DNA of 51,152 bases from a virus (IMGVR_UViG_3300044822_000018:1-51152), one strand, 5' to 3'; shown: positions 14,914 through 44,281, counted from the first letter of the stretch. Program-made: numbers and translations. The notes: generated by a model from the sequence alone, not told the origin.

Positions 14914-15047
14914 ACGTACACAACGCTGTGAGCGACTACGCGGAAGAACCGGCGATATTGCACGATGCGCTTTGCGAGATGGTTGACGGTTCGCCTTCGT
15001 GCAGTTGCGAAGTGATACCCGATGATTGGGCCCAGTTTTATGAGTGA
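14910..15047 (+). CDS. 45-aa acidic micro-protein (not in ORF track)
   Basis: MNVHNAVSDYAEEPAILHDALCEMVDGSPSCSCEVIPDDWAQFYE*; GGAGG RBS; overlaps the next ATG. Confidence 0.55.
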   Translation: MNVHNAVSDYAEEPAILHDALCEMVDGSPSCSCEVIPDDWAQFYE

Positions 15048-16557
15048 CACAATTACCGAATGGCGGCTTGGTAAGAAGCACGGTAACACCTACGAACATC
15101 GTGTGACGTTGACTCAATTAGGGTTTCGCTTTGATGGCGAAACAAAAGAATGGGTTACTTGGAACGAAGAACAGTTCGCGCAGGGTTACTTCTTAGTGAC
15201 CGGCCAACCCTATTCGGCCCGCACAGACGGGCAGAAAGATGGAGAAGTGAACGCAACCGAAAGCGAAATTGATTTAACTGGTAACGGACGCGGCTTTACC
15301 GACCCGCAATTAAATGCGGCGTTAAAGGCGTTAGGCGGTGGCTCGGTCGGGTTTGACTATGCCCGCGTATCCAAAGCCGGGCGTATCGCATACGGCGTTG
15401 AGAAGTATGGCTCGGACGCCCTAATGCGGGCCATTCGGTTCGTCATCGAAACCGAAGCCAAAGAAGGCCCAGAAGCGCCGCGCAAGCCTTCGCAGGCAGA
15501 TCGGCTCAACGAGCTAGGCAAGGCTCCTGTAGCGCCTGCGAAGGCCCCAAGTGAGGCTCCGCCTGTTCCGCCCGCCGACGACGTGACTTCGGCGGTAGCG
15601 GCATTGCGCAAGCTCATGGGAACGGGCGTGCTGGACGAAGCCCGCGTCCGAGCTATTGCCGACGAGGCGGTGAAAGACGGCGTCGGTGCCTTCGCTCAAG
15701 TCATCGACGATGCGGTAAAGGCCGCCGTCGGTCGGCCCAAGATTCTGGAAGTAAGGTCGCCGGGCGCGACTGTTCAAGTTAAGGGCGCACATCGTGACTT
15801 TGAGCGGGTTATGAAGTGTGTCGGCGCGGGGTTAAACGTGCTGATGACCGGGCCTAGCGGTTGCGGCAAAAGCGTAATAGCCAAACACGTCGCGCAAGGG
15901 TTAAATCGTCCGTTTCATTCAGAGTCTTTCTCCGGTGGCAAGACCGAATCGGCAATTACTGCCCGCCTGTTGCCAAGCAAAGGCGGGGACTTCATTCCCG
16001 TTGATAGTCAATGGCTCCACGCTTACGCGAATGGCTATGTCATCTTCGCCGACGAGTTAGACGCTGCCGATGCGAACGTCTGGATAGTCGCAAACGAGAT
16101 GCTTGGCTCAGACGGGTTTCATTGCGAGATTCGGGCTATCGGCAAAGATGGCACCGCCCGTGACGAGGCTGTTTGGGTTAAACGGCATCCCAACACGGTC
16201 TTGATTGGCGCAATGAATACGTTCGGCACAGGGCCGAACATGATGTTCCAAGGCCGTAACGCACTAGACGCAGCATCGTTAGATCGGTGGTTGTTGCTCG
16301 AAGTTAGCTATGACGAGGCTATCGACCGTGCTTACGAAGTTGACGATCAAACGCGCAATTTTGTAAACTGGGTCCTCGCTGCCCGTAAAATCGTTCTTGA
16401 ACGTGGCATGAAGCGCGTGGTGAGTCACCGGATGACGGCCAAAGGTTGCGCGCTTCTTGCTGCGGGATTCAAGCAAAAAGAAGTTCGCGAGATGCTTCTC
16501 GTCGGTTGGACGAAAGACGAAGTACTCCAAGTCAAAGACGCGGATACTCAAAGCTAA
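15040..16557 (+). CDS. MoxR/CbbQ/CobS-like AAA+ ATPase
   Basis: Walker A GPSGCGKS, Walker B IFADELD, RHPN..LIGAMNT, LDAASLDRW; small N-terminal GNTY..LGFRFDGETKEW domain. Confidence 0.85.
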   Translation: MSDTITEWRLGKKHGNTYEHRVTLTQLGFRFDGETKEWVTWNEEQFAQGYFLVTGQPYSARTDGQKDGEVNATESEIDLTGNGRGFTDPQLNAALKALGGGSVGFDYARVSKAGRIAYGVEKYGSDALMRAIRFVIETEAKEGPEAPRKPSQADRLNELGKAPVAPAKAPSEAPPVPPADDVTSAVAALRKLMGTGVLDEARVRAIADEAVKDGVGAFAQVIDDAVKAAVGRPKILEVRSPGATVQVKGAHRDFERVMKCVGAGLNVLMTGPSGCGKSVIAKHVAQGLNRPFHSESFSGGKTESAITARLLPSKGGDFIPVDSQWLHAYANGYVIFADELDAADANVWIVANEMLGSDGFHCEIRAIGKDGTARDEAVWVKRHPNTVLIGAMNTFGTGPNMMFQGRNALDAASLDRWLLLEVSYDEAIDRAYEVDDQTRNFVNWVLAARKIVLERGMKRVVSHRMTAKGCALLAAGFKQKEVREMLLVGWTKDEVLQVKDADTQS

Positions 16558-29444: not shown

Positions 29445-31826
29445 TTATTGGGATTCCCTACTGATCGTCCGATCAGTTCTCGCGGCGGCTTTGGCACTAC
29501 GCGGCTTCTGCGAGTGCAAGCCAAAAACTTGAAGTAGCATTTCATGCAAAAGAGAATGTGGACCGCTTAACGCGGTAGGACCATACGGCTGAAAAATTGC
29601 GTCTTTGCGATGAAGAAATTCTTGGCCGACGACGTTTGCGGCGTTCATGCCTAAACTTGCGCCGGGAACAGTATTTTCGATAAACTGTTCGCCCATGCTA
29701 ACAGGCGACGTGCCGTGCGGATTCTTCGCGTCTATCTCGGCTCCAAGCGCCGCGCCAACTGGCCCTGCCGTCGCGCCCGAGGCGAAGTAATCAGCCTGGT
29801 TAAAATAACCCTCGGCGGCGTCTTTGACCGGGCCGCCTATCACAATCTCGCTATTGTGCTTGCGGTCGGTAAGCGCGTCTTGAGCCTTGATGATCGACTC
29901 AGGGTAAAACGGACGCGCGCGAATGGCTCGGCCAACGGCGCTAGGAACGGTTCCAACTCGAAAGGCGACAAACGGACCGCCAAGAGCTTGCAACGCGCTC
30001 ACAAAGGCGCTGACGTTGCGATAATCGCCCAGGTCGCGGTTAATATGATCGGCAATTTGGTAGTCGCGCGCAATTTCGTGCCCCGGCAACGCTTTGGGCA
30101 AAAACGAATCGTAGTGTTCGTAAAGCGCCTGACGATAGCCGAGTTCAAGCCTGTTGAGTATGTTCGAGTCAATTTTACCAACCTGGCTAATGCCAAGCGG
30201 GCCTTTGATGCTTGAGATATAATCAGCGTGCAAGCCTAAGTCTGACATACGTGCTAACTGTTGCGCGTCCAGACCGCGAAACGCATAGGCCAGGCCCTTG
30301 CCGAACGCAACAGGTCCGCCGCTGATATACGCCAGCATACCCACGTTGCGAAGTCCGTGCGGCAACGGGTCGAGCATAACAGAGTTGCGACCTGCGCCTC
30401 GCGCGAAGCCTGCCAGTTTATCTATCGGTCCGCCTGCAGGGCCAATAGTAACGCGCTTGGGTCCAAAAGACAGGCTCTGGACTGTTTGATTTGCCTGTCT
30501 GTCGCGTTCGGCTTGAGTTGCGTTGGCCCAATCAAAGTCTTTGATGCCGCCGTGATTAGCCAAAAAGTCGCGTGTTTCTCGCGTAATCAAGCCGTGCGCT
30601 ACGTCTGTTCGCGTGTTATCTAGGTGCTGTTTCCAGATTTGAAATTCGTCCGCGCCTGGTGCAGTTAGACGAGTCTGCAAGTCCTGCATCGCGTTGTGAA
30701 CGTCGTATTTGCTTGTACCCAGAGGCGCGGTAGAGTCTTGACGCAAAAAATAGTCGTTGCCGTGCAATTTGCGCGTTAGTTGCTCGTAGCCAAGATTCAT
30801 CGCCTGTGCGCGCATCTGTTGATTGCCGTAAACAAACGCATGTTCAAGCACGCGCTGTCTAAGCGGATCGACGTTAAGACCCTGGCCTTTGACGGCGGCC
30901 TTGTTTTGCTCTAACAGTTCTTTGTCTTTTTGCATTGCAGGACGAATAAACTTGTTAGAGATTTTGTTTTCGATGCCCATGCGCGCAGTTTTGCCCACGT
31001 CGCCGGTTAGATATTTGTCTAGTTCGGGCCGACGGCCAAAATACTGCCCGCCTGTTTTTACTACGTCTTTGCCCAGAGTTTGTATTGAAGTCAAAACCGG
31101 GGCAAGTGCTTTGCTGCCAGGTACGATAGCCGCTATGCCGCTAGCCGCCTGTTGAACGTGTCCTGCGAGATTAGCCATGTCAGCAAGTTTGCTAACTGGC
31201 CCTGCCCAAAAGAGCGGATCGACGATAAGATTTGTGCCAAATTTAAGCACGCCGTGAACTATGGGATGATTTTTCTTGCCTGTTACATGGTCATCTAAGT
31301 ATTCGTTAAAATAATCGACGCCCAGTTTTCGCATAACGGTGTCTAGGTTTTTGCCAACTTTGGCTGTATCGAACGGATGTACTGCGTTGTCGATGCCGTT
31401 TCTGACGATCTTGACTACGTCTGGGTGGCTAGGATCAAACGCTGCGATGCCGCCTTGTAGCGCGCGACCGGGCGCGCCCAGTACCGCGTCGAGCCCGCCA
31501 AGCGTGTCGTTCCAAGCGTGCGCCATGAACTGTTCGCCGCCTGTGACGCCTTGCGCCACGGCGTGCGTCGCCGCTCCAAAAAACTTTTGCGCTTGATTCT
31601 GGGCGTGAACGTGCGGCGATGGCGTCTTACGAATGGCGCTATCGTCGTGGAACTGAGTTGGCGGCGGCGGCGTGGGCAGCTTGGACGCGCCAGGGGGTTG
31701 TGCAGGCTGACTGTCCTGACCAGACGGCGCAGCATCGACAAAACCCTTAGGGGCTGTTGTAGGAGCGTCGTCAACAAAGCCATGTTTGGGCGCAGGCGTT
31801 GTTACGGACTCGTCCACGAACGGCAT
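29445..31826 (-). CDS. large internal virion / ejection protein
   Basis: 793 aa, A/G-rich, N-terminal (G)FVD repeats; last large gene of a podoviral structural arm. Confidence 0.6.
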   Translation of the reverse strand: MPFVDESVTTPAPKHGFVDDAPTTAPKGFVDAAPSGQDSQPAQPPGASKLPTPPPPTQFHDDSAIRKTPSPHVHAQNQAQKFFGAATHAVAQGVTGGEQFMAHAWNDTLGGLDAVLGAPGRALQGGIAAFDPSHPDVVKIVRNGIDNAVHPFDTAKVGKNLDTVMRKLGVDYFNEYLDDHVTGKKNHPIVHGVLKFGTNLIVDPLFWAGPVSKLADMANLAGHVQQAASGIAAIVPGSKALAPVLTSIQTLGKDVVKTGGQYFGRRPELDKYLTGDVGKTARMGIENKISNKFIRPAMQKDKELLEQNKAAVKGQGLNVDPLRQRVLEHAFVYGNQQMRAQAMNLGYEQLTRKLHGNDYFLRQDSTAPLGTSKYDVHNAMQDLQTRLTAPGADEFQIWKQHLDNTRTDVAHGLITRETRDFLANHGGIKDFDWANATQAERDRQANQTVQSLSFGPKRVTIGPAGGPIDKLAGFARGAGRNSVMLDPLPHGLRNVGMLAYISGGPVAFGKGLAYAFRGLDAQQLARMSDLGLHADYISSIKGPLGISQVGKIDSNILNRLELGYRQALYEHYDSFLPKALPGHEIARDYQIADHINRDLGDYRNVSAFVSALQALGGPFVAFRVGTVPSAVGRAIRARPFYPESIIKAQDALTDRKHNSEIVIGGPVKDAAEGYFNQADYFASGATAGPVGAALGAEIDAKNPHGTSPVSMGEQFIENTVPGASLGMNAANVVGQEFLHRKDAIFQPYGPTALSGPHSLLHEMLLQVFGLHSQKPRSAKAAARTDRTISRESQ

Positions 31827-33253
31827 TAGTTACGCCACGTTCTAGTAGTTTTTCCGTCCGAAACTTCAAATGTACCGTCAGCGTTTTTGCTAACTGTGCG
31901 CCATCCCGCAGGTAAACCTACAGCCCCGCCGCTGTTGTTTTTACTAGGCGCGTCTTGTCCAGGTACGACTTGAACTTTGTGACCTGTTGTTGCCGACAAA
32001 GAATTGTCTTGCGCTGTACCGATAGCTTGAAGGGCTGCTGCCTGTTTAGTAACTAAATCTTCGTATTTGCTCGCAAGTGTCGGCACGGCTTGGCCGGTGT
32101 CGGGGTCTGTATAATTGGGGTCGAGTTCGCGCACTATATCGTCAGGGACTTCTTTACCGGCGGCGATATAATTGCGAGCCTGACTGTTGAGAAAGTCTAA
32201 CTGTTGCTTCATCAAGCTCGTTGTTTGTTTTAGGCCGTAATTGCCTTCGAGTTCTTGCTGGTATTGCCACTTGTTTAAGCTAATCTGTCCGTTTTTTTCG
32301 TAAACAGCTAGGCGGCGTTCGGCCATGCTCGCAGCGTTTTGCGCTATATTTATGCGTTGTTGCGTTGCCTGTTCCATTATTTGATCGTGTCTGCTTTTGC
32401 GCGCCTCACCCAAACCAAATTCGCGCGTTTTTTCGACTAAAGCACGGTTTTTATATTTCATCTCGTCATCGAACTGAAAACCCAGGCGTTTTAGTCTGTC
32501 GATTTTTGCTTGTTCGGCCTGTCCTATTAAGCCTTGTGAGTACGCGCTTTTAGGATCAACGAGTTCGTTGTAGTTATACATGGGCGGTTCGCCGCCGTTA
32601 GACACAAAAGCGGCGTTACTCGGTCCCATGTTTTTAATTTGCTGCACGAAGTTCTTGTACGGCACGACGCCTTTGGACACGTTTTCTTGCAAACTGTCCA
32701 TGTTGCGCCGGATCGTATCGGCTTGGGCGCTATTAAGCGCGGGCAAAACTTGGGCTTCGCCCATAAGTTGCTGCTTTTGCTCGGGCGAGCCGCCATAGGC
32801 ATCGACTTTAGCTTTGCGCTGCGGCGAGTTAGGAGGCCAGGCTAGGATGCTGTCGCGCTCTTGGGGCGAGATTTGGCTTATGTCGGGCATTGGTTGGGCC
32901 GTAAACTGCGCCCAGTTGTAGATTTTGGTACCGTTGGGACCATCTTCAGCCGGAGGTGGGTCAATGCCGTACTTGCGGAACTTTGCTAACAACAAGTCCG
33001 TATACTTAGGTTGTTGCAACTGTTCGGGTTTAAGCTGACTTAAAGTCGTGTTAATGTCTTGTATGCCAGCTTGACGTTGACTTTGCTGCAAGTCAAACTG
33101 TTGGCGCTGCATTTGGAGTTTTTGCAGAGCTAGTTGGTTTTGGTTTTGCTGCATGAGCATATTGCGATCTTGCCGCTGCTCGGATGCTTGTTTAGCCTGA
33201 TTGGCTCCCTGGGCAAGACCAGCTAGTATGCCTAAGATTGGATTAAAAGACAT
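31826..33253 (-). CDS. internal virion / ejection protein
   Basis: ILGILAGLAQG amphipathic start then Q-rich coiled coil. Confidence 0.6.
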   Translation of the reverse strand: MSFNPILGILAGLAQGANQAKQASEQRQDRNMLMQQNQNQLALQKLQMQRQQFDLQQSQRQAGIQDINTTLSQLKPEQLQQPKYTDLLLAKFRKYGIDPPPAEDGPNGTKIYNWAQFTAQPMPDISQISPQERDSILAWPPNSPQRKAKVDAYGGSPEQKQQLMGEAQVLPALNSAQADTIRRNMDSLQENVSKGVVPYKNFVQQIKNMGPSNAAFVSNGGEPPMYNYNELVDPKSAYSQGLIGQAEQAKIDRLKRLGFQFDDEMKYKNRALVEKTREFGLGEARKSRHDQIMEQATQQRINIAQNAASMAERRLAVYEKNGQISLNKWQYQQELEGNYGLKQTTSLMKQQLDFLNSQARNYIAAGKEVPDDIVRELDPNYTDPDTGQAVPTLASKYEDLVTKQAAALQAIGTAQDNSLSATTGHKVQVVPGQDAPSKNNSGGAVGLPAGWRTVSKNADGTFEVSDGKTTRTWRN

Positions 33254-33256
33254 TGT

Positions 33257-34588
33257 TCACTCCAGCAGCCCAGGCGGGCACCAAAAACCGGAAGCAAGCA
33301 TCGAATCCCCATCTTTAAGGATACAATCCGCTGCATCCGTTCGGTACTGTAACCCTGGCGCATCAATTTTTTTCGCGGTATCTAACGCACTAGAGTTTAA
33401 CTCCGAAAGAGAATCGCCAATATGAATAGCAAGTCCAACGATGCCCTCGGGACTCGCGACGTGCAGCCCTTTGACGGAATCGAAAGCGAGTTCATAGGGC
33501 AAGAAATCACCGCCGATCAAATCATCGACTTTGATGCCGCGCACTTCAACATCGAGCGACGTGTGCTTCATCTCTCGCTTCCCATGTTCCCAAGGGTACG
33601 GTGGGATCGTTAAGCGCAATGAGAAAGCCGTTTGATTTGACCATTCGGGCAGGTCTGTACCTGTTGCCAGGGCATAAAGAAGCTGACTCGCGCTTTCCCA
33701 CAGGCACAGACTCGTCGGCTCAGAGTCATACCCAAAGCGCGGCGTCCATTCCAAGAAATACGCCTCGCCATCTTCACCGGCGATGGCGTTCATATCATAT
33801 ATGCCTGGCGGAGCCTGTTCTCGCAAGAAAACCTGTGTTAGATTGGAAAACCCAAGTTTTAGGGCTATGTCAGGCTCGTCCGCGTAGAACCATACCGCGT
33901 TAAACGCGCAACCTGTTGCGGGGCCAATGTCGTCGTTCCAGCACTTTTTGTGTTCGATTGTGCCTTCATAGGGTCCGACAAATGCACGACCGTTCCACCA
34001 GCGCGCTGTCGAAAGCGGTACGCCGTCGATCTTTTGCTGCACCATGCACTCGCCGCGCGGCCCAAAACGCCGTATAACAGAATCAAGATATTCGCTTAAC
34101 TGTTGCCCGCCTGTTGCGCTCTTAGTTGCGTCAGACTCTAAAAACCTGTCGGACTTCCAGTAGACGCTTTCTTCTTGTGGCAGTTTTTGAGCCCATTGGC
34201 GTGCCTCTTGAAATGACTTAAAGTCTACGTAGGAAGGTAAAGTTGCCCCACAGTTTTTGGCTATCTCAAAGCCGTAACTTCTATCTTTTTCGAGTTTATC
34301 GCAAAATTTACCGCCGCCTACTACCAACAGGCCCCAACGTCGCGCCTCGTCGGCCTGTTCGCCCATGCCAGAGGAATCAAACAAAACAACCGTAGGCTGA
34401 TTAGCCAACGCGCCTTGTTTGGCCCAATCGAGTAGTTTTGCCCACGTCGAACAGGTCGGCACTAAGCCAGTACCTACCTGTTGCTGTTCTTTGTCTTGGT
34501 TCCAGACAAGAACTTTGCAGCCTTCGGCTTGAAGTCTAAGCCAAAAACTAAGGCCGCACGAAAACGACGTAGCAATAGCGACGTTCAC
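33257..34588 (-). CDS. PurD-like ATP-grasp ligase
   Basis: LEKDR, MVQQKIDG, EHKKCWNDDIGPATG, YFLEWTPRFGY, LQYRTD parallel PurD motifs. Confidence 0.75.
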   Translation of the reverse strand: MNVAIATSFSCGLSFWLRLQAEGCKVLVWNQDKEQQQVGTGLVPTCSTWAKLLDWAKQGALANQPTVVLFDSSGMGEQADEARRWGLLVVGGGKFCDKLEKDRSYGFEIAKNCGATLPSYVDFKSFQEARQWAQKLPQEESVYWKSDRFLESDATKSATGGQQLSEYLDSVIRRFGPRGECMVQQKIDGVPLSTARWWNGRAFVGPYEGTIEHKKCWNDDIGPATGCAFNAVWFYADEPDIALKLGFSNLTQVFLREQAPPGIYDMNAIAGEDGEAYFLEWTPRFGYDSEPTSLCLWESASQLLYALATGTDLPEWSNQTAFSLRLTIPPYPWEHGKREMKHTSLDVEVRGIKVDDLIGGDFLPYELAFDSVKGLHVASPEGIVGLAIHIGDSLSELNSSALDTAKKIDAPGLQYRTDAADCILKDGDSMLASGFWCPPGLLE

Positions 34589-35964
34589 CCGAACAGGCTT
34601 CCCAGACCGCCCAAAATAGAGCCAATTAAGTTAAGATTGCCGGATTGCGCCTGTTGCGCCTGTTGATTGTTGTACTGTTGGCCTGCGAAGTAAGAATTAC
34701 CGGCGTTTTGCCCTGCGCCTAGAAACGAGTTGAGCGTATTTTGATCTAGTCCTAACGAGCCCAACAAGTTAGAATAAGCGTTTTCTTGCGCCGTTTGTTG
34801 TTGTCCCTGTACGTTGCCATAGATATTCGCCGCGCCGCTCTGGTCGGTAGCATACTGACTTGCTGCCTGGGACGCAAGATTGCCTGAGTCCGCGTAGGCG
34901 CTATTAGCGTTAGATTGATTTTGGTTAGCGAGTCCTCCCGCCGAACTCCAAGCGTTGTTTAGCGTGTTCTGCGAAGTGTTATACAAGCTGCCTGCGCCTT
35001 CGAGCGCGCTTTGTTGCAAGCCCGACGTAGCGTTGTAAAGATTACCCGCGCCGGATAAAGCACTTTGTTGTAGGCCCGTTACGGCGTTGCCTAGCGAGCC
35101 TGAGTTTGCAATCGCTGAGTTTTGCTGTCCTGCGTTTGCTAGGCTCATGTTGCCCGCTGCCTGTTGTGCGGTCAAGTTCTGACCGGCTAGTTGGCTTTGC
35201 AGGCTTTGCGCGGTCTGCATGTTTGAATTGGCTTGATTACCGGCGATTTGATTTATGAGCGCGCCTTGATTAGCCGTACCGCCGAGTTGGTTTTGCAGCG
35301 AGTTAAGCAAAGACGTATTGGCCGAGTTCGCGACGTTTTGGCTTGCTTGAACTTCGGGGCCTTGCGTTTGCGCGAAGTTTAACAGATTATTCGTTGCCTG
35401 GTTCGCGCCTGTTGCTTGGACGCCGCCGCCACTTAGATTTTGCGCCGCCATCGTGCCATACGGCGACGAGCCCGAATTTGCCAGCGAGCCAGCCAACGAT
35501 CCTGCGTTTGAGATATACGGCGAGTTGCTCAAAGTCGAAAGCTGACCGGCGTTCGACGCGCCTGAATCGGCGTAATACTGACTGTTGAGCAGGTTTGACT
35601 GTGCCTGGCCTGATGCTTGCGGCACTCCAGCGTTGTTATACAGCGCGTTAGTGGCGTTTTGCTGTCCTTGCGTGCCGCCTGTTCCTATAGCGCCTAAGCT
35701 ATTAGCGGCGTTAAATTGACTCGCATAGTTGCCCGCTGCCGTGTAAGGCTGTTGAATGTTCGGGCTTAAATTGTTGTATGCCTGTCCTGTCGCCCCAAGC
35801 TGATAGTTTTGCGGCTGATTTGTGCTGATTGTTTGCCCGGTGTTTGGGTTGACGCCTGTGAACGTAGCAATTTGCGAGCCAATAGAATTAACAATCGGCC
35901 CAAGGGCTTGATTCATAAGCCCCTGGTCGATATTAGCTTGGTTTTGCTGCGCTCCTCCGCCCAT
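34585..35964 (-). CDS. G/N/Q/A-rich ejection (DNA pilot-like) protein
   Basis: Starts MGGG; low complexity; C-terminal LIGSILGGLGSLFG glycine-zipper. Confidence 0.6.
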   Translation of the reverse strand: MGGGAQQNQANIDQGLMNQALGPIVNSIGSQIATFTGVNPNTGQTISTNQPQNYQLGATGQAYNNLSPNIQQPYTAAGNYASQFNAANSLGAIGTGGTQGQQNATNALYNNAGVPQASGQAQSNLLNSQYYADSGASNAGQLSTLSNSPYISNAGSLAGSLANSGSSPYGTMAAQNLSGGGVQATGANQATNNLLNFAQTQGPEVQASQNVANSANTSLLNSLQNQLGGTANQGALINQIAGNQANSNMQTAQSLQSQLAGQNLTAQQAAGNMSLANAGQQNSAIANSGSLGNAVTGLQQSALSGAGNLYNATSGLQQSALEGAGSLYNTSQNTLNNAWSSAGGLANQNQSNANSAYADSGNLASQAASQYATDQSGAANIYGNVQGQQQTAQENAYSNLLGSLGLDQNTLNSFLGAGQNAGNSYFAGQQYNNQQAQQAQSGNLNLIGSILGGLGSLFG

Positions 35965-36425
35965 TAAACTACTCCGTAAACAAAAACAAGTGCGTATAAA
36001 CTACTATGCCGAATAGGTGCTAATTTTTCTTTCTCGAAAACTTTTGCCAGGGCGTTGATGAACTCGGTATTGGCTGCAAGGACGTGACAGATAAGGCCCT
36101 TGACTTCAGTTGGGTTGTCAACCATAGCCCGTAGCATTTTAAGTGCAGCATAAGTAGCCAACACTCCAAATCGTCCTTTAACCGGGCAAACATTCATAAC
36201 CTCCAACAGATACGGACTAATCATTCTGACGTTTACGGCGATGGCTAAACGCTTGTTGTAAAACAGTCCTAGCCAGATCGAACCGTCAACAGGTACCGGA
36301 CCTCGGTTAAGCCCGAAACGCTCTCGATAACGATTTAGTAAAATCTCTGTTCGCGCGTCGTTTACCGTGTCTAGTATTACAGGTCCGTCAAATTCGACGG
36401 GCTTAGTACGAGTTGCCGTTGCCAC
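35964..36425 (-). CDS. putative GNAT-fold protein
   Basis: 153 aa; LEVMNVCP..GRFG...CHVLAAN pattern; position matches the acetyltransferase-like gene preceding podoviral ejection genes. Confidence 0.4.
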   Translation of the reverse strand: MATATRTKPVEFDGPVILDTVNDARTEILLNRYRERFGLNRGPVPVDGSIWLGLFYNKRLAIAVNVRMISPYLLEVMNVCPVKGRFGVLATYAALKMLRAMVDNPTEVKGLICHVLAANTEFINALAKVFEKEKLAPIRHSSLYALVFVYGVV

Positions 36426-36882
36426 TTGGTAGTGTCGAACTTGACGATGATCCTGGTAATGGATTTTGCGAACTCATTAGAGCTTGTATCAGCGTTGAAA
36501 TGCCGCCGCCTAGCGCGCCGTTTGAGCCGCCCATGTTCATGTTAGGTTGCGGAGCGTTTGCGCCTTGTGCGCCTTGACTCATGCCATAAGAGCCGTTGCC
36601 CATGCCCTGCGGCATCGGATTAGCGCCCTGGACGCCTTGGGTTGCCGTTCCGGCACGTTGACTTTGCTGTTGCGCTTGGTGTTGAGCCAGCATAGCCATA
36701 AGCTGCAAAAGCTCCTGACCTTGTTGGCCCTGTTGATTCGTATTTTGAGTTGCTTGACCTTGTGGTGACTGTTGCTGCGTGCCGCCAAGTTGGTTTTGGC
36801 CCGTCATGCCGTTGTTGTTGGCGGTGCCTGTTGGCGCGGTTCCGGCACTTTGCGCCTGCATTTGCTGCAAATACTGTCCCAT
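36403..36882 (-). CDS. Q/G/N/M-rich low-complexity virion-module protein
   Basis: 159 aa, AGGAG RBS, almost no charged residues. Confidence 0.6.
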   Translation of the reverse strand: MGQYLQQMQAQSAGTAPTGTANNNGMTGQNQLGGTQQQSPQGQATQNTNQQGQQGQELLQLMAMLAQHQAQQQSQRAGTATQGVQGANPMPQGMGNGSYGMSQGAQGANAPQPNMNMGGSNGALGGGISTLIQALMSSQNPLPGSSSSSTLPSGNGNSY

Positions 36883-36897
36883 GCTGCTCCTATCTTA

Positions 36898-37143
36898 TCA
36901 CAGTATCGGAACCCAGGCGGTTCCGTTAGAGCGGTAAATAAATGTGCCCGATACTCCGTCACTTCGGAGATAGATCGAGCCTGCTGCTTGAATTTGCTGG
37001 TTGTCGGGAACTCCCGCGCCGATTGTGATTGTGCCCGCAGGTAACGTGGTGACGTTAGTGGTTAAAGGGTTAATTGCGCGAGGGCCAGTCTTAACGCTGT
37101 ACTGAAGCTGTGAGCTTTGTGACGAGTTTTGTTTAGCGGGCAT
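36898..37143 (-). CDS. small tail-associated protein
   Basis: TAATG coupling; GSIYLRSDG...YRSNGTAW motif seen in fibre modules. Confidence 0.55.
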   Translation of the reverse strand: MPAKQNSSQSSQLQYSVKTGPRAINPLTTNVTTLPAGTITIGAGVPDNQQIQAAGSIYLRSDGVSGTFIYRSNGTAWVPIL

Positions 37144-39167
37144 TATGATTGCTGTAGCCATGCTCTTTCTTGCGTACCTGCAACTGTTACCGAATAAATA
37201 ACAGGCGGCGTAGTTGTCGCAGTAGATTGTATGCTGACATATAATTGTGCGCTAAATCCGCGTGCGTTGGCCTGCGGAATAGGGATTATTTGACTTGGGC
37301 CTTTGCTTAGATCGACAGTTATGTTCGTCGTAACTGTTCCGCCAAATCCAAGTACGTCAAGTTTAATTTCTGCTGTATTAACTTGGACAGGCGCTTCAAC
37401 GCAAATATAGTGATAGCTCTTTTCAATCCAAGGCGTCTGCGACGATTCGACGCCTGTTTGCCATACTGCCGTCGCCGGATTGCCCAAGTCACCGTCGCGG
37501 GCAAACCAGGCATCTAACGCAGGCGTCGTCGTGCGCGAGGCTACAACGTAGTTGTGCCTAGGCGTAATGGCTTTGCCGTTGGCGTCTGTCGGCGGCGCTG
37601 ATTCTGATGGCACGCTAACTGCCGACAAGCAAGCATACGGCAACGGCGAAATCCATTCTTGACTTGGCAAGTAATAGCCCAGAGTCACGTTAGAAGCCGG
37701 AAAAGAAAGCCAGTATGTTCGATCAGCGAAGAATCCAACGGCGTTTTGTTGATCGGCAACAGGTATCTGCTCTATAAAACCGCGCACTTTTTCGCCGATA
37801 TAAAGCGGCGTATTGCCATCAAACTGATAGACGCCTTCTTCTGAAAGCCAGAACACGACGCCTTGACAGTTACATACTGACTGTTGAGACACGCAGCCTA
37901 TATCAGCGGCCTTGATTACTATAAAAGTTGCGGGATCGTTGCCAAATAGCAACCAAAAAGTGCGCTGCTTAAATAATACGGCACAGCTTGCTAGACTCAC
38001 GGCAGCAACAGGCAAATCGCCAAAGTACCTAGGCAGCACAGAGCTAGGCGGGTTCGGCACACCAGAATTGCCAACAAGAGTTACGGAGTCGGCCTTGTTA
38101 AACGACCAGGGCAAGCCGTAATCAGACCACCAAAGCTGAATCTGCGGCTGATTTAACGTGTCTGCGTTGTTGACTACTAGAAAACAAAACAATCTTTCGA
38201 CGTGTTGAAACACGACGCCTGTTGCGACAGCGTTGCTAACTGTCGTGGTAAACGGCGGTGGATCGTGATTTAAGTCAAGCTGTGCGTTACTAGCAATAGC
38301 GCCGTCGGCTACGTCGTCGCTGTACGCCGCGTTCCCTGTTAAGCCCGACGCGATTAGAAACCACGTAGGCTGGTTTGTGCTAAGGCGATAAATATTTGTC
38401 TTGTACGTCGAGCCGTCTGCGTTAGTGCCTGACCAAGTATGCCCCGCGAGCAAGTTAATAACTGAGTATGTGGGCGCGCTTGTTGTAGACACCCCTGCGA
38501 GAACATAGTCACGATAAATAAACTCGCCGTCTATCGTGTTTTCGCCATAATTACCTGGCAAAGTCAACAGGCTATCGGGACTTGTTTCTTGGGTTGTGCC
38601 GTCTGCATACGTAACTGTGCGCGTCAGCGTGTAAAAATATATGCCTTGCGCGAGTGCGACGTAACTCCCACTTGGCGTCGTACTAACGCAGTTTATGTCC
38701 GTGCCAATTAGATAAGCTGTAGGCGGCTGCTGCCATATATAGATTGACCCGTCGCGAATTTGTGTGCCGTTGTTTAGGTACAAAGCTGTTCCGTATTGAG
38801 CCGCTGAATTAAACGAAGCTGTGTACTGCAAACTTGCTAACGTGGCAGTTTGCGTGTTGTACACGCCTGTTATGTAATATATGCTACTGGCAGGTTCATA
38901 ATACGGCGCGCAAAAAACTACAAAACGCTGATCTTCTTTTGGCGTAAAACTTGTTACGAACGTAATCGGACTTGTTGTCGGTATGCCAGAAACTTCTATA
39001 GGTACGCGACCACGTTGCACCATCATAGCGGCTAAGACGCGGTGCGTATCGACATTAATTGAACCCGATGAAGCGTCTGCGGGGTCGATATACTCGTCGG
39101 CGGCTGTTGCGTCGTAACCCTTAAACGGTCCTACACGTATAAGCGCTTGATATTTTTCGCTTGGCAT
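37143..39167 (-). CDS. tail nozzle / DNA stabilisation protein (P22 gp10-like)
   Basis: 674 aa; LWWSD, DIGCVSQQSV, VFWLSEEGVYQFDG, IGEKVR beta-propeller pattern. Confidence 0.8.
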   Translation of the reverse strand: MPSEKYQALIRVGPFKGYDATAADEYIDPADASSGSINVDTHRVLAAMMVQRGRVPIEVSGIPTTSPITFVTSFTPKEDQRFVVFCAPYYEPASSIYYITGVYNTQTATLASLQYTASFNSAAQYGTALYLNNGTQIRDGSIYIWQQPPTAYLIGTDINCVSTTPSGSYVALAQGIYFYTLTRTVTYADGTTQETSPDSLLTLPGNYGENTIDGEFIYRDYVLAGVSTTSAPTYSVINLLAGHTWSGTNADGSTYKTNIYRLSTNQPTWFLIASGLTGNAAYSDDVADGAIASNAQLDLNHDPPPFTTTVSNAVATGVVFQHVERLFCFLVVNNADTLNQPQIQLWWSDYGLPWSFNKADSVTLVGNSGVPNPPSSVLPRYFGDLPVAAVSLASCAVLFKQRTFWLLFGNDPATFIVIKAADIGCVSQQSVCNCQGVVFWLSEEGVYQFDGNTPLYIGEKVRGFIEQIPVADQQNAVGFFADRTYWLSFPASNVTLGYYLPSQEWISPLPYACLSAVSVPSESAPPTDANGKAITPRHNYVVASRTTTPALDAWFARDGDLGNPATAVWQTGVESSQTPWIEKSYHYICVEAPVQVNTAEIKLDVLGFGGTVTTNITVDLSKGPSQIIPIPQANARGFSAQLYVSIQSTATTTPPVIYSVTVAGTQERAWLQQS

Positions 39168-41690: not shown

Positions 41691-44281
41691 TATGGGAACG
41701 GGTTCCCTTCACAGAGTGGTGCGCCTGTGGGGTTCGGGTTCGGCGTGTATCCGGTCGGGCACACGACAGGTTGCGGCGTCGCGGGGTTTGGCGTGCTGCC
41801 GGTGACGTTACCGATTTGCAGAATGATCGGCATATCCCAAACAGGCACGACGACACTCGCCAAACCAGTGTACGCCGTCAATGGAGTCGTTGTTACTGCG
41901 CCGGTTAGCGGATTGATGGCCCACGTCGTGTAGCTCGCGTTGGCTTGATTAAATCTAATAGTCGGTGTTGTCGTGGGCACCGCGATGGGGGCGAGCGGCG
42001 ATGACTGCTCAAAACCCCCATCATTCTTCCAAACAACTAACCAAAAGCTGCCATCGGCTTTTTCAAGCAACAGGCTTTTCACGTCGCTTGTGCCGTCGAT
42101 GTAATACGACAGCGATGCGTGCGGTAACGTGGCGGTGCTTGGGAATGTGTCGCCAGGGTCGTTGAGAATTTGAGAAAACGCACGCATCGACGTATACGCT
42201 GGTGTCGGGTTGAGATACCCGTCTAATAAAGCGTAGAAGTCCGAGTTATTTTCCATCGCCAGGTCGTAGATGTACACGCCATCTGCGCCGTCAGACTCAC
42301 CTTGCAGCATTGCGCGCATCGTGTACTTTGATTTGGTTGGGAAGTCGATGTACGCCGGTTGATTGCCATACGTACCATTTGCGTCATACGCACCTTCTTC
42401 GCTGACCACGACGGGCTGCACGGGGGAACTGCCGCAAATAATTTGTGTCGTAGCCATCGTTTGTGCGAGGCCCGATTCACCGGGCACAACCGTAACGTCA
42501 GGGTTGCCGACACCTGCAAAGGTATACCCGTGCAGGTTACACAGGTCCGTATACGTGCCCGGCTGCACGCCTTGCGACGTGTAATAGTTCGCCAGTGTAT
42601 TAAAGTCGAGATTGTCGCTGGCAAAGATAACCGGCGATGAAATTAGCTTAACGCTATGCGGAAACGGGCTTGCTGTTGGGCCGTAGCTGACCGAGCGCGC
42701 GCTTGACATCGCCTGCTGATTGGCGAACACGTAGGCCGCCCAATTCGACGACGTGCAAGGCGTGCCGCCAGTTGTTGGATTAGGCGTCGCGTTCGTGCTA
42801 GACCCGCATGACGCCGCAGCGGGCGACGGCGAGGCTAGGGGCAGAGTTCCGACAAATGTTCCAACTGTTGCGTTCGGATGCGGTGCTGCGGTGCTGCCGG
42901 TGTTTCCGCCGTGTTCGTAAGAGCCGTCCCCCGATGCGTTGTATTCGTTGAGTCCCTCGAATCCGCGCATGGCTAACGGGGTCGTGCCATTGTCCGTAAC
43001 GCAGTTATAAAGCGTCGTTAGGCTTGCGATGGTGCTGTAATCGACGGTGCCCGACTCAATGTCGTAGCCGAGCGGAACGAGCGTATTCTGATACCAGCCG
43101 CAGATCGTCGATACGCTCTCGGAGCCGAGCCCGTCGCGAAGATGGCGGAATACCATATCGGCCATGATATTACGGCCCGTTCCGGTTGCACCCGAGATGA
43201 GCGTGTTGCCGTTGGGTGCCGGGGTTGTGGCGTAATAGTAGAAGGCACCACCGCCGCTGTCTTGGTAGGAGAAGTGCGTATTAACGCCCTCATTGTAGAG
43301 CAGCGTGTTTGCGGGAATTGCTACAACCGGAATCGGGCTGGGATAGGGCGTTGCGGGTACGATAGACGGGCCAGGTAAAACCGATAGCGTTTCGTTTAGA
43401 ATATTTTTGGATGCAGGCCAAACGCTGTATCCAAGTTCCGACCCAAAGTACGACGCGGCGGCGTTGCTTGTCGTGGTTGGGTACGTCGCTTGTGCGTAAA
43501 CAATGTTCGAGTAGTCGACCGTCGTTGGACCGACGCCCTCAACGCTTTCGCCTGTCGTGTTGCCGACGCTGTTGCCGTTTGAGAAGTAAAACGGAGGATA
43601 CATGACGGCACTTGGATAGTACGTGCCGTCTAAACCGTTAAAGTCCCAAGCCTGCAAGACATAGGTGCCCGCTGTAGCCGACGAGATCGTGTTGCCGGAA
43701 AGAGTTTTGTTGGCCGAACTCGTCCAGGGTCCCGTTGTCGCGGCAACCGATGGCAGCGGATTTGGAACAGTTGCCGTTACGCTGCCAGGGCATCCGTTGG
43801 CATTTGCCAGGTCCACGAGAATCGTTTTTGAGGGCGTGTTGGTGCTACTCGACAGCAGTAAGCTTGCCGTTGTGCCTTCGCCGCTTGCCGCCGCGCATTT
43901 TACCCAAATACCGTATGTTGGGGAGCCGCTAGGCGTCGAGATTTCCGTCCAGCCGCTAATCGTGCCACCGGGCTGCGTCGATGATCCTAACGCTCCCTGT
44001 GCTTCAAAGACAAGCATGTGTGACGAGGACGCAGGCGTGGCGGACAACGATGCCGTGACCGTTTGGCTCCCTAAGTTTGTCGTGTTGACGCCATACCCCG
44101 GAGATTGCGCTGGATACGCCATCGCGAGCGGTGACGCGGTTGGGTACGCCGTGATCGACGGACTCGGTGAGGGCGATGCGCTGGTGACAAATGTCCAGAC
44201 ACCGGCACGACTTGAATTGTCAATCGCAAGGAAAATAGCAAATAAAGCACCTAGTATTGCTAAAATGCGAATTGACTTCAA
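41690..44281 (-). CDS. 863-aa exported protein with clan GH-A-like glycoside hydrolase domain
   Basis: Signal peptide ending SSRA-G; GVNTH, HLRDG, FEGLNEY, NLHGY, VVSEEG, YIYDL. Confidence 0.7.
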   Translation of the reverse strand: MKSIRILAILGALFAIFLAIDNSSRAGVWTFVTSASPSPSPSITAYPTASPLAMAYPAQSPGYGVNTTNLGSQTVTASLSATPASSSHMLVFEAQGALGSSTQPGGTISGWTEISTPSGSPTYGIWVKCAAASGEGTTASLLLSSSTNTPSKTILVDLANANGCPGSVTATVPNPLPSVAATTGPWTSSANKTLSGNTISSATAGTYVLQAWDFNGLDGTYYPSAVMYPPFYFSNGNSVGNTTGESVEGVGPTTVDYSNIVYAQATYPTTTSNAAASYFGSELGYSVWPASKNILNETLSVLPGPSIVPATPYPSPIPVVAIPANTLLYNEGVNTHFSYQDSGGGAFYYYATTPAPNGNTLISGATGTGRNIMADMVFRHLRDGLGSESVSTICGWYQNTLVPLGYDIESGTVDYSTIASLTTLYNCVTDNGTTPLAMRGFEGLNEYNASGDGSYEHGGNTGSTAAPHPNATVGTFVGTLPLASPSPAAASCGSSTNATPNPTTGGTPCTSSNWAAYVFANQQAMSSARSVSYGPTASPFPHSVKLISSPVIFASDNLDFNTLANYYTSQGVQPGTYTDLCNLHGYTFAGVGNPDVTVVPGESGLAQTMATTQIICGSSPVQPVVVSEEGAYDANGTYGNQPAYIDFPTKSKYTMRAMLQGESDGADGVYIYDLAMENNSDFYALLDGYLNPTPAYTSMRAFSQILNDPGDTFPSTATLPHASLSYYIDGTSDVKSLLLEKADGSFWLVVWKNDGGFEQSSPLAPIAVPTTTPTIRFNQANASYTTWAINPLTGAVTTTPLTAYTGLASVVVPVWDMPIILQIGNVTGSTPNPATPQPVVCPTGYTPNPNPTGAPLCEGNPFP

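Follow-up and report, generated by a model that had tools for sequence, protein, structure and literature searches.

Why does a phage genome carry a gene resembling purD among the genes for its virion proteins, and what might the product do? The window, that is, the whole stretch of viral DNA analyzed here, is a complete genome of 51,152 bp with a DTR. On its minus strand, a GTG-initiated gene (33257..34588) encodes a 443-aa ATP-grasp protein with the PurD fold that is not PurD and belongs to a large, mostly viral family. The description of this gene in the first-pass annotation was confirmed: the ORF contains the quoted motifs DDIGPATG, LEWTPRFG, and QYRTD, shares the nucleotides GTGA between its start codon and the TGA of an upstream 459-aa ORF, and ends 3 nt ahead of the ATG, at 33253, of a 475-aa ORF. 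A scan for promoters and terminators yielded nothing above shuffled sequences.

Relationship of the ligase to PurD

The likeness of the 443-aa protein (hereafter, ligase) to PurD is real, being weak in sequence and strong in predicted fold. Pfam GARS_A matched the ligase with an E-value of 0.011 and 16 bits, under the 27-bit cut-off, and a phmmer search of the PDB retrieved five sequences, all of them PurD (best match 2yrw; E = 4.4e-8; residues 78-420). The AF2 model (pLDDT 93.0, pTM 0.90) is a confident four-domain PurD fold, and the Foldseek matches ranked 1 to 15 are all GAR synthetases (E-values from 8e-27 to 3e-21; TMq 0.70-0.75). The next-best structural matches, at E-values of about 1e-17, come from the PurK/PurT/biotin carboxylase clade; these are far weaker than the matches to PurD, and both the C domain and the R416/D418 motif of the ligase are PurD-like.

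Searches for relatives yielded 282 sequences among 5431 candidates at E<=1e-3; clustering at 50% identity left 1049 clusters at an E-value threshold of 1e-3, 603 at 1e-10, and 140 at 1e-30. The ligase gene is real, given these hundreds of relatives (the 282 sequences at E<=1e-3 and the 603 clusters at E<=1e-10). A scan of viral contigs with the single ligase protein as the query gave no match, and the relatives in viral contigs were instead recovered with an alignment as the query. The ligase had no match among the PHROGs and no cultured member was found; the best match in a structure search of BFVD reached a TMq of 0.48, and the phage collection contained, besides the true purD of a jumbo phage, a single uncultured record. 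Other than the intein-bearing alleles described below, a search for longer, fused forms retrieved none, which is weak evidence. In the literature searched, no paper was found that places a PurD-like or ATP-grasp ligase in a virion module; supplementary tables of virome studies may list members as purD. The family is large, mostly viral, and so far undescribed; its members are predicted ATP-driven ligases in which the substrate pocket has been rebuilt.

Against the purD model TIGR00877, the ligase scores 27.9 bits, compared with a cut-off of 288. In a tree with 27 true PurDs (that of E. coli, 24 from the phylum of an Acidobacteriaceae MAG, so assigned by its title, and two from other MAGs), the 146 viral sequences are monophyletic, with a support of 0.967 and a stem of 1.81 substitutions per site, and none nests among the cellular enzymes; the mean identity between the two groups is 19.5%, and the maximum 26.5%. 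Among the genomes of the Acidobacteriota group, 25 of 26 (a tally that includes one unpublished genome) have a gene above the purD cut-off. The viral gene also occurs in three MAGs; two of these have a purD of their own, scoring 394 and 419 bits, and the third has a fragment that, at 253 bits, is under the cut-off. The absence of other purine genes noted in the first-pass annotation holds for the three families searched, purF, purM, and purN, none of which is present in the complete genome. Its view that the protein is a PurD-derived ATP-grasp enzyme outside the purine pathway is therefore borne out by the score, the tree, the missing purF, purM, and purN, and the residue changes detailed next.

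Retained catalytic core and altered substrate pockets

Residues were counted in the alignment of the 146 viral sequences; those lost from PurD are given in E. coli numbering, and the roles of the PurD-equivalent residues follow the available text of PMC8880213 and PMC2978367. The predicted ATP-grasp phosphoryl-transfer residues, E100, R103, K145, K214, E280, and R284, are retained. E100, R103 (a Lys in PurD), K145, G189, E212 (an Asp in PurD), G222, R284, and G286 are present in all 146 sequences, E280 and D418 in 145, N267 in 144, R416 in 143, and K214 in 141. The family thus shows the ATP-grasp hallmarks, namely, the fold, conserved Lys and Arg residues for the ATP phosphates, and acidic Mg ligands (K145, R103, K214, E280).

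By contrast with this core, the residues that in PurD bind PRA and glycine are lost or inverted, as judged from the alignment, and the N-terminal substrate region, already recognized as divergent in the first-pass annotation, is the most changed part of the protein. The N-domain Arg of the PurD motif GxGGREHA, which binds the acyl-phosphate/PRA according to the available text of PMC2978367, corresponds to R11; it is replaced with Asp in 67 and with Glu in 19 of the 146 sequences, and with Cys in the window protein, and the adjacent E12 and H13 are lost. G71 is replaced with Asp in 133 sequences, and G71-P-E reads D-x-x. The columns of the B-loop GLAAGKG, which in PurD lies over the gamma-phosphate, contain no conserved Gly or Lys. 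The general base D293 is replaced with Tyr, Phe, or Trp in 140/146, the glycine-binding E295 with Ala or Ser in 132/146, D214 with Glu in every sequence, and N288, the canonical Asn ligand of Mg, with Thr in 127/146; R383 is lost, and the ribose-binding Glu is kept in 87/146 but is Pro in the window protein. Given the lost B-loop, the Asn to Thr change at the Mg ligand and the Glu to Pro change at the ribose site, nucleotide use might conceivably be reduced or altered.

The conserved motifs are themselves family-specific in part. PurD ExN-xRxGDPE is rebuilt as ExT-xRxG[YFW], which in the window protein aligns as E280-W-T-P-R284-F-G286-Y-D288 (33725..33751, minus strand). The alignment also delineates the E212-H-K214 ... 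G222-P-A-T225-G226-C227 loop (33908..33955, minus strand), where C227 replaces PurD Gly229 in 127 of the 146 sequences, and D265-M-N267 (33788..33796, minus strand), at the positions of PurD Tyr271/Gly273, with D265 found in 136 of the sequences. N267 appears to occupy the position of the PurT Mg ligand Glu267, as mapped from the human numbering given in the available text of PMC2978367.

Two relatives carry LAGLIDADG inteins, one (locus L079) inside ExT|PRxG, aligning with T282/P283, and the other (L075) inside the GPx|TG loop, aligning with A224/T225. The two inserts match LAGLIDADG_3 with E-values of 7.5e-7 and 2.4e-5, respectively, and, by alignment with the intein-free sequences from L078 and L072, have the junctions C...GN|C and C...GN|S. 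Both are in frame, start with Cys, end with Asn followed by Cys or Ser at position +1, contain the homing endonuclease domain, and are absent from close relatives; the penultimate residue is Gly, not His. Inteins typically sit in functionally critical motifs. Their insertion exactly within ExT-PRxG and GPxTG suggests that these two best-conserved motifs of the ligase are important.

Genomic context across phage lineages

Of the 80 viral loci, 73 yielded a PurD-like ORF, and in 56 of these, the ORFs on both sides run in the same direction as the ligase. With head and virion families seeded from PHROG matches, such a family is present within five genes on either side of the ligase in 41 of the 73 loci, and anywhere in the locus in 56; in the other 17, none of the genes could be assigned to such a family. 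The neighbors in lineages with differing gene orders include portal, capsid, and terminase genes, giant ORFs, and ejection-like genes. For example, the orders TerL-129aa-ligase-portal-scaffold-MCP (L029), portal-ligase-..-MCP (L066), and portal/MuF-like fusion-80aa-ligase-..-MCP (L064) were observed, and in three loci (L060, L061, L067), an ORF of 3200-3300 aa overlaps the ligase start by 1-4 nt. The contrary locus is L074, where the ligase follows helicase and primase genes, outside the virion block. The position in virion modules, for which the first-pass annotation had proposed a neighborhood survey, is thus conserved across many phages.

Among the loci compared, no single neighbor or candidate target protein is common to all lineages, and by BLAST, the giant ORFs that precede the ligase show no likeness from one lineage to another. 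An ORF family of ~128 aa, with the motifs IPHxxQRYxTxGDW, HExxE, and EPGDxxAPY, immediately precedes the ligase in 19 loci of distant lineages; it has no Pfam or PHROG match and is absent from the window.

Proteins encoded next to the ligase

In the window, the cassette is anchored upstream by a 674-aa protein matching phrog_511, 'internal virion protein' (37143..39167, minus strand). It is followed, on the same strand, by a 159-aa protein (36403..36882) that starts with Met-Gly and is, by composition, Q/G/N-rich, with no Lys and one Arg; the 153-aa GNAT-fold protein (35964..36425); and, between the latter and the ligase, a 459-aa protein (34585..35964) rich in Q, N, G, S, and A and devoid of Lys, Arg, and His. 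Directly downstream of the ligase are a 475-aa protein of no assigned family (31826..33253, minus strand), the place of which is occupied in the close clade by ORFs of about 400-650 aa, and a 793-aa protein (29445..31826, minus strand), the last large gene of the virion block, relatives of which are found at position +2 or +3 from the ligase in 13 loci. None of the 159-, 459-, 475-, and 793-aa ORFs has a significant Pfam or PHROG match, and a sequence search of the PDB yielded nothing for the 793-, 475-, 674-, and 1851-aa ORFs or for the giant ORF of L060. The nearest named ESM-Atlas clusters of the 793-aa protein, a weak lead at scores of 0.88-0.92, bear the LPD and MuF_C domains of polyvalent proteins. 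The ejection or pilot role of these neighbors is putative, being assigned by position and composition. C39 peptidases (PF03412, PF13529) are absent from the window genome.

The Met-Gly starts of two neighbors had been offered as a clue to protein modification. Such starts are indeed in excess among low-complexity ORFs (14/52, compared with 32/488 other ORFs; Fisher p = 2.5e-5), but when the glycine content of these proteins (15.9%) is taken as the expectation, the excess becomes marginal (binomial p = 0.037), and the counted sequences are interrelated. The Gly-rich composition accounts for most of the excess, and we rejected Met-Gly as a specific signal. We also rejected a conserved C-terminal Gly of the upstream neighbor, which would have fitted a PurD-like activation: the window protein ends in ..GSLFG, but its positional homologs have no common C-terminus.

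The GNAT-like assignment of the 153-aa protein proved right at the level of the predicted fold. Foldseek retrieved 36 matches at E<=1e-3 with its AF2 model (pLDDT 87.2) as the query; among the matches listed, every chain is an acetyltransferase or GNAT entry, the lowest E-value is 6.7e-5, and TMq reaches 0.61. Pfam had no match for the window protein; Acetyltransf_1 matched weakly in 3 of 16 members of this GNAT family (best E = 0.02). GNAT motif A, canonically Q/R-x-x-G-x-G/A, reads [RK]-x-G-x-x-A, with A90 invariant. Of 85 loci, 25 encode this protein together with the ligase, and each of them belongs to the close clade or adjoins it; the protein is missing from all 56 loci from L025 to L080, so that a joint GNAT-ligase pathway, if there is one, is clade-specific. 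In MW202796.1, a GNAT with no detectable relationship to that of the window is encoded four genes upstream of the ligase, and it was rejected as kin. The predicted ligase-GNAT complex, with a score of 0.08, has no bearing either way.

Possible functions of the ligase

From these observations, we infer that the 443-aa protein is, very probably, a neofunctionalized descendant of PurD, a carboxylate-amine ligase that has kept the acyl-phosphate machinery of ATP-grasp enzymes, has had both pockets rebuilt, and has lost the ability to couple glycine with phosphoribosylamine. In place of glycine, another carboxylate would be phosphorylated from ATP (K214, R284), and the acyl-phosphate would then be attacked by an amine. 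The acceptor is probably cationic and not a sugar phosphate, because the phosphate-binding Arg of the N domain is replaced with Asp or Glu or lost and Gly71 is replaced with Asp.

As for the role in infection, we infer a target that ends up in the particle, since the head or virion blocks of many unrelated phage lineages include this gene as a co-transcribed member. Modification or cross-linking of virion proteins and co-ejection of the enzyme had both been put forward in the first-pass annotation; the best reading, which we adopt tentatively, is that of a late-acting amide ligase modifying a virion-bound component, with a co-ejected effector nearly as likely. The likeliest target would belong to the ejection or head-cargo proteins and would receive its modification in the cytoplasm, at a late stage of infection. 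In the close clade, an amine on this target would also be acylated by the GNAT, and the first candidates would be the low-complexity, lysine-free proteins whose genes lie between those for the two enzymes. Modification of cell-wall peptides, also proposed, would be unlikely for an ATP-dependent enzyme if it had to take place outside the cytoplasm.

Somewhat less probably, the ligase, along with the GNAT in the close clade, would instead be packaged in the capsid and co-ejected; drawing on the ATP (and acyl-CoA) of the new host, it would modify a host molecule soon after entry, in the service of take-over or counter-defense. Enzymes delivered inside phage heads, namely, T4 Alt, P1 Dar, N4 virion RNA polymerase, and MuF-fused toxins, could serve as precedents. 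The ligase is among the last genes of the virion block and adjoins large proteins of no known family; in other lineages, it directly follows the portal/MuF-like fusion, the portal, or ORFs of 1100-3300 aa with overlapping start and stop codons. The conserved catalytic core, the inteins in two relatives, and the LPD/MuF_C-bearing clusters near the 793-aa neighbor are compatible with such a cargo. However, the ligase has no recognizable capsid-targeting element, such blocks also encode assembly factors missing from particles, the setting in L074 is exceptional, and the available text of PMC5512222 mentions no ATP-grasp ligase domain among polyvalent cargo proteins. Synthesis late in infection of a free amide, such as an aminoacyl or acyl polyamine-like compound, for use in DNA packaging or as a protectant, with the GNAT tailoring the same amine, is unlikely. 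The acidic replacements at former phosphate-binding positions would suit a cationic amine, the ligase is linked to TerL and portal genes in some lineages, and the polyamine acetyltransferase SpeG (6vfm, TMq 0.61) has the top TM-score, not the best E-value, among the GNAT matches listed. Nevertheless, the amine-producing AdoMetDC-type decarboxylase PF02675 is found in 0 of 11 records (the window genome and those of 10 relatives, 3 of the 10 at least 92% complete), no other biosynthetic genes are nearby, and so tight an embedding among structural genes would be unusual for metabolic ones.

The remaining explanations fare worse. That only the PurD fold is used, in a catalytically inert structural or assembly protein, would agree with the location in a structural block and with the loss of the B-loop, the Asn Mg ligand, and the ribose-binding Glu in the window protein; it is very unlikely, as the residues conserved in 141-146 of the 146 sequences are the phosphoryl-transfer residues of PurD, D265 and N267, polar residues new to the family and invariant in it, are found in the same sequence region, and inteins occupy two catalytic motifs. 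Modification of DNA or nucleotides was another proposal of the first-pass annotation; as a joint action with the GNAT on phage DNA ahead of packaging, we consider it highly improbable, even with late expression, nearby packaging genes in some lineages, and Mu Mom, a GNAT-fold enzyme that modifies DNA, as a possible precedent. The ORFs scanned include no other base-modification genes, and in all annotated loci but L074, the ligase is in the virion block rather than in a nucleotide-metabolism block. Finally, that the product is a true PurD, with the phage using the gene to raise purine synthesis as an auxiliary metabolic function, is extremely unlikely: the fold is that of PurD, 31 of the 120 relatives listed are named 'phosphoribosylamine-glycine ligase' by JGI, and purD is counted as an auxiliary metabolic gene in virome literature (available text of PMC11097641), but the profile score, the lost PRA and glycine residues, the separate clade, the absence of purF, purM, and purN, and the virion context all argue against it. 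The purine-metabolism label is probably wrong, and calls of this kind by annotation pipelines inflate claims of phage reprogramming of purine metabolism. A conserved, intein-bearing, predicted ATP-dependent ligase in virion blocks of hundreds of lineages would point to an unrecognized covalent chemistry of particles or of the first moments of infection.

Comparison with known systems

The closest known system is PurD itself (EC 6.3.4.13; TIGR00877; PDB 2ys6, 1gso, 2qk4, 2yw2), which shares with the ligase the four-domain N-B-A-C fold over nearly the whole length, the residues E100, K145, K214, G222-P-x-T-G, E280, R284, G286, R416, and D418, and, presumably, the acyl-phosphate chemistry. The ligase differs in lacking GxGGREHA, GPE, the B-loop GLAAGKG, Asp293, Glu295, and Arg383, in having Glu for PurD Asp214 and Arg for Lys105, and in the new D265, N267, and C227; its clade is separate, unlinked to pur genes, and sited in virion blocks. 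For enzymology, it would be a natural case of an ATP-grasp enzyme with the phosphoryl-transfer core kept, both pockets rebuilt, and the charge reversed at the acceptor site, with concrete residues named. Acyl-phosphate carboxylate-amine ligases that act on proteins include RimK, alongside the Rim GNATs, and PafA with Pup, and ligases and GNATs can share protein targets; RimK (RimK-type ATP-grasp) and PafA (glutamine synthetase-like) belong to families other than that of the ligase.

The genes for head-delivered enzymes and polyvalent proteins likewise lie within blocks of head or ejection genes, in many cases adjacent to portal, MuF, and giant proteins, and the ligase shares this placement in most of the loci surveyed, L074 being contrary. 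We know of no ATP-grasp amide ligase among head-delivered phage enzymes. If co-ejected, the ligase would be the first such enzyme found as virion cargo, a host target would be amide- or acyl-marked within seconds of infection, and a new class of take-over or counter-defense effectors would extend across hundreds of uncultured phage lineages.

Another phage ATP-grasp ligase without a known substrate is encoded, alongside amide-forming or tailoring enzymes, in LUZ24-like phages, where the available text of PMC3890496 describes an early-module cluster of ATP-grasp, amidoligase, glutamine amidotransferase, and GGCT genes. That protein, of 291 aa, belongs to a different family and is encoded on the early/replication strand with the amidoligase and GATase genes, whereas the members of the present family are PurD-derived, 420-470 aa long, and encoded in virion blocks.

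Genome organization and the ligase gene cassette

The 51,152-bp window carries direct terminal repeats at its ends, and the virus record is complete. Replication genes occupy the plus strand, and a long minus-strand block encodes the terminase, portal/adaptor, major capsid, and tail proteins. The ligase cassette forms the end of this block. In the order of transcription, it consists of a 674-aa protein (37143-39167) matching phrog_511 ('internal virion protein', E 2.5e-12); an 87-aa ORF; a 159-aa Q/G/N-rich ORF (36403-36882); a 153-aa ORF (35964-36425) with a GNAT fold in its structure model; a 459-aa Q/N/G-rich ORF (34585-35964); the 443-aa ligase ORF (33257-34588), with a PurD fold; and, directly after the ligase, a 475-aa ORF and a 793-aa ORF, all on the minus strand. 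The gene boundaries and the three motifs (DDIGPATG, LEWTPRFG, QYRTD) described for the ligase in the first-pass annotation were all recovered: the GTG start shares bases with the upstream TGA stop (GTGA), and 3 nt separate the gene's end from the next ATG.

A 1851-aa ORF (8121-13676, minus strand) located upstream of the terminase block is without a match in Pfam, PHROG, or PDB sequences and without a BLAST relative in 80 loci. In the early block, a 511-aa protein (15022-16557, plus strand) has hits to ATPase families and to phrog_249 ('porphyrin biosynthesis', E 2e-40), and is probably a CobS/MoxR-type AAA ATPase.

The ligase has a PurD fold but is not PurD

The likeness of the ligase to PurD is weak by sequence but clear by structure. 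The Pfam GARS_A match is below threshold (E 0.011), and all five PDB sequence matches at E<=1 are PurD (best E 4.4e-8, residues 78-420). From a 28-sequence alignment, AlphaFold2 produced a model with a pLDDT of 93.0; in a Foldseek search with this model, ranks 1-15 were held by GAR synthetases without exception (E 8e-27 to 3e-21, TM-score 0.70-0.75), followed by PurK and biotin carboxylase at about 1e-17.

The ligase is nevertheless not PurD. It scores 27.9 bits against the curated purD model, for which the cut-off is 288 bits, whereas in two of the three metagenome-assembled genomes (MAGs) in which the viral gene also occurs, the genuine purD scores 394 and 419 bits. For phylogenetic analysis, 146 viral-family members (132 cluster representatives and 14 distant loci) were aligned with 27 true PurDs: that of E. 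coli, 24 belonging to the phylum of a MAG titled as Acidobacteriaceae, and two from other MAGs, an unpublished locus being left out. The viral family forms a single clade apart from the cellular PurDs (support 0.967, stem of 1.81 substitutions/site), with a mean identity between the two sets of 19.5% and a maximum of 26.5%. The reported absence of other purine genes was borne out for purF, purM, and purN, none of which is present in the genome.

Family size and distribution

A 90%-identity protein collection contains 282 relatives of the ligase, many on 47-52-kb contigs, and 603 family clusters were obtained at 50% identity (E<=1e-10). There is no PHROG family for the ligase and no close structure in BFVD (best TM-score 0.48). 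Among 50,697 phage records, one uncultured relative was found, MW202796.1 (24.6% identity), in which the un-annotated ORF lies at the end of the record (42140-43441; L122:9001-10302) and is the sole representative of the viral family in INPHARED; two Acinetobacter jumbo phage records in the same collection also match, with the match annotated as purD. Scanned by pattern, 185,579 species genomes yielded three MAG contigs with the ligase, which point tentatively to hosts in Acidobacteriota and Eremiobacterota. The searches brought up no cultured member of the family. The ESM-Atlas neighbours are mainly viral, and two of the three highest-ranked clusters carry a label of about 65% bacterial, so that we call the family mostly viral.

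In one Vulcanimicrobiota MAG, a ligase and a GNAT of the close clade, that is, the clade of relatives closest to the window, occur together on each of two different contigs (L090, G002:C129, and L085); these are either two related phages binned in one genome or prophages. Among the family members listed, 31 of 120 bear the JGI name 'phosphoribosylamine-glycine ligase'. No description of the family was found in the literature covered.

Gene neighbourhood

When viral contigs were scanned with an alignment as query, 90 relatives emerged; 80 of the loci were retained, and a PurD-like ORF was called in 73. The close clade (L001-L024) conserves the order phrog_511-like protein, low-complexity protein, GNAT, low-complexity protein, ligase, followed by an ORF of ~450 aa, an ORF of 800-1400 aa, and replication genes on the opposite strand. 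Outside this clade, the neighbours vary and the ligase is still found in the head or virion block: TerL-129aa-ligase-portal-scaffold-MCP in L029, portal-ligase-..-MCP in L066, portal/MuF-like fusion-80aa-ligase-..-MCP in L064, MCP-..-ligase in L058, and adaptor-like-ligase-..-phrog_511 in L063. Some other lineages encode ORFs of 1100-3300 aa immediately upstream of the ligase. With the annotation of 17 PHROG seeds extended along BLAST clusters, a head or virion family is encoded within +-5 genes of the ligase in 41 of 73 loci and anywhere in the locus in 56; both flanking ORFs are co-directional in 56/73. The survey thus places the ligase in head or virion blocks across lineages, with a single contrary locus, L074 (5169-11332), where it follows helicase and primase rather than virion genes.

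The portal of L064 (773-2905) is a 710-aa protein whose C-terminal part is MuF-like ('minor head protein/head morphogenesis'), and the ligase is encoded two genes downstream. In distant lineages, a family of ~128-aa ORFs (IPHxxQRYxTxGDW, HExxE, EPGDxxAPY) directly precedes the ligase, the start of which is often overlapped (L044:9628-10011, L029:9615-10004, and 17 other loci); L007 and L018 encode a member elsewhere, on the opposite strand. This family has no match in Pfam or PHROG and is absent from the window. Two candidate partner enzymes were likewise not found: an AdoMetDC-type decarboxylase (PF02675) in the window or in the records of 10 relatives, 3 of them at least 92% complete, and C39 peptidases (PF03412, PF13529) in the window.

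The GNAT and the low-complexity neighbours

The 153-aa protein has no Pfam match, and the GNAT-like assignment stands at the level of the fold: with a model of pLDDT 87.2, from a family of 16 aligned members, Foldseek returned 36 matches at E<=1e-3, and among those listed all chains are acetyltransferase/GNAT. The corresponding HMM detected 25 ORFs in 85 loci (22 of 24 close-clade loci and 3 MAG loci) but none in the 56 loci of L025-L080, so the pairing is clade-specific and the GNAT is not a universal partner of the ligase. The two genes co-travel in the close clade and perhaps recurrently elsewhere: MW202796.1 encodes, four genes upstream of the ligase, a Pfam-positive GNAT unrelated to that of the window and annotated as 'N-acetyltransferase gcN5'.

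Apart from gene position, nothing marks the neighbours of the ligase as ejection proteins, but their composition is striking. The 459-aa protein is rich in Q/N/G/S/A and lacks Lys, Arg, and His altogether; in the 159-aa protein, Lys is missing too and Arg occurs once. Their positional homologues are likewise depleted (K+R 2.4% vs 11.3% in other ORFs), possibly because binding to DNA or amine-directed modification is avoided. The Met-Gly start noted for two neighbours is enriched among low-complexity ORFs (14/52 vs 32/488 of the others), but the excess is marginal given the glycine content (p 0.037).

Inteins in ligase relatives

Two relatives encode longer ligases, of 750 and 784 aa, in which the Pfam matches to GARS_A and GARS_C are separated by LAGLIDADG_3 domains. 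In L079 (7660-10014), the LAGLIDADG intein lies between aligned T282/P283, inside ExT-PRxG, and in L075 (3024-5276), between aligned A224/T225, inside the GPxTG loop. Aligned with intein-free siblings, the inserts are in-frame, with junctions Cys...Gly-Asn|Cys and Cys...Gly-Asn|Ser. The inteins are related to each other, occupy two sites, each within one of the two best-conserved ligase motifs, and have Gly, not His, as the penultimate residue. Inteins are usually located in functionally critical motifs of important genes, which argues that the ligase fold is not inert.

Possible roles of the ligase

The family to which the ligase belongs is large, mostly viral, and undescribed; its members are ATP-grasp ligases derived from PurD and linked to virion gene blocks. 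The window ligase very probably forms amides outside purine metabolism, with a function connected to the particle, and the more specific possibilities are weighed within this reading. Late modification of a virion-bound component is a reasonable candidate, at somewhat less than an even chance. Co-ejection of the ligase as an effector comes second, not far behind. Synthesis of a free small molecule is improbable.

An inert fold would be quite unlikely, given the inteins inside the ExT-PRxG and GPxTG motifs of the relatives, and a role in DNA modification is very unlikely. That the enzyme is after all a true PurD, as the fold and the JGI name might suggest, is scarcely credible in view of the score far below the purD cut-off, the separate clade, and the lack of purF, purM, and purN. 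In a snow-virome study, purD, by name, is among the auxiliary metabolic genes of complete viral genomes (PMC11097641). Of all these readings, late modification of a virion-bound component is favoured.

Comparison of the active site with PurD

Residue roles in PurD follow two studies (PMC2978367, PMC8880213). E100, R103, K145, G189, K214, E280, R284, G286, R416, and D418 (ligase numbering) are kept in 141-146 of 146 viral sequences, as are G222 and G226 of the GPxTG loop, where Pro is present in 120/146 and Thr in 103/146. According to these sources, the PurD equivalents of K145, K214, and R284 serve ATP, phosphoryl transfer, and the acyl-phosphate together with the glycine backbone, respectively, and the Lys that occupies the R103 position in PurD is an ATP ligand.

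The residues that bind PRA and glycine, in contrast, are replaced family-wide. In E. coli numbering, Glu takes the place of Asp214, the ligand of the glycine amine, in 146/146; Ala or Ser that of Glu295, the second glycine ligand, in 132/146; and Tyr, Phe, or Trp that of Asp293, proposed to act as general base for PRA, in 140/146 (roles from the same sources). Arg11 of GxGGREHA is Asp/Glu in 86/146 (Cys in the window ligase), Gly71 of GPE is Asp in 133/146, Asn288 of ExN is Thr in 127/146, and the B-loop GLAAGKG and Arg383 are lost across the family. Near-invariant residues new to the family are D265 (136/146), N267 (144/146), and C227 (127/146); in our mapping, N267 would fall at the position of the PurT Mg ligand Glu267. 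Compared with PurD, the viral enzymes thus appear to retain the acyl-phosphate engine with both substrate pockets rebuilt, and we read the acceptor site as changed from phosphate-binding to acidic, which would make a cationic, non-phosphorylated amine the likely substrate in place of PRA.
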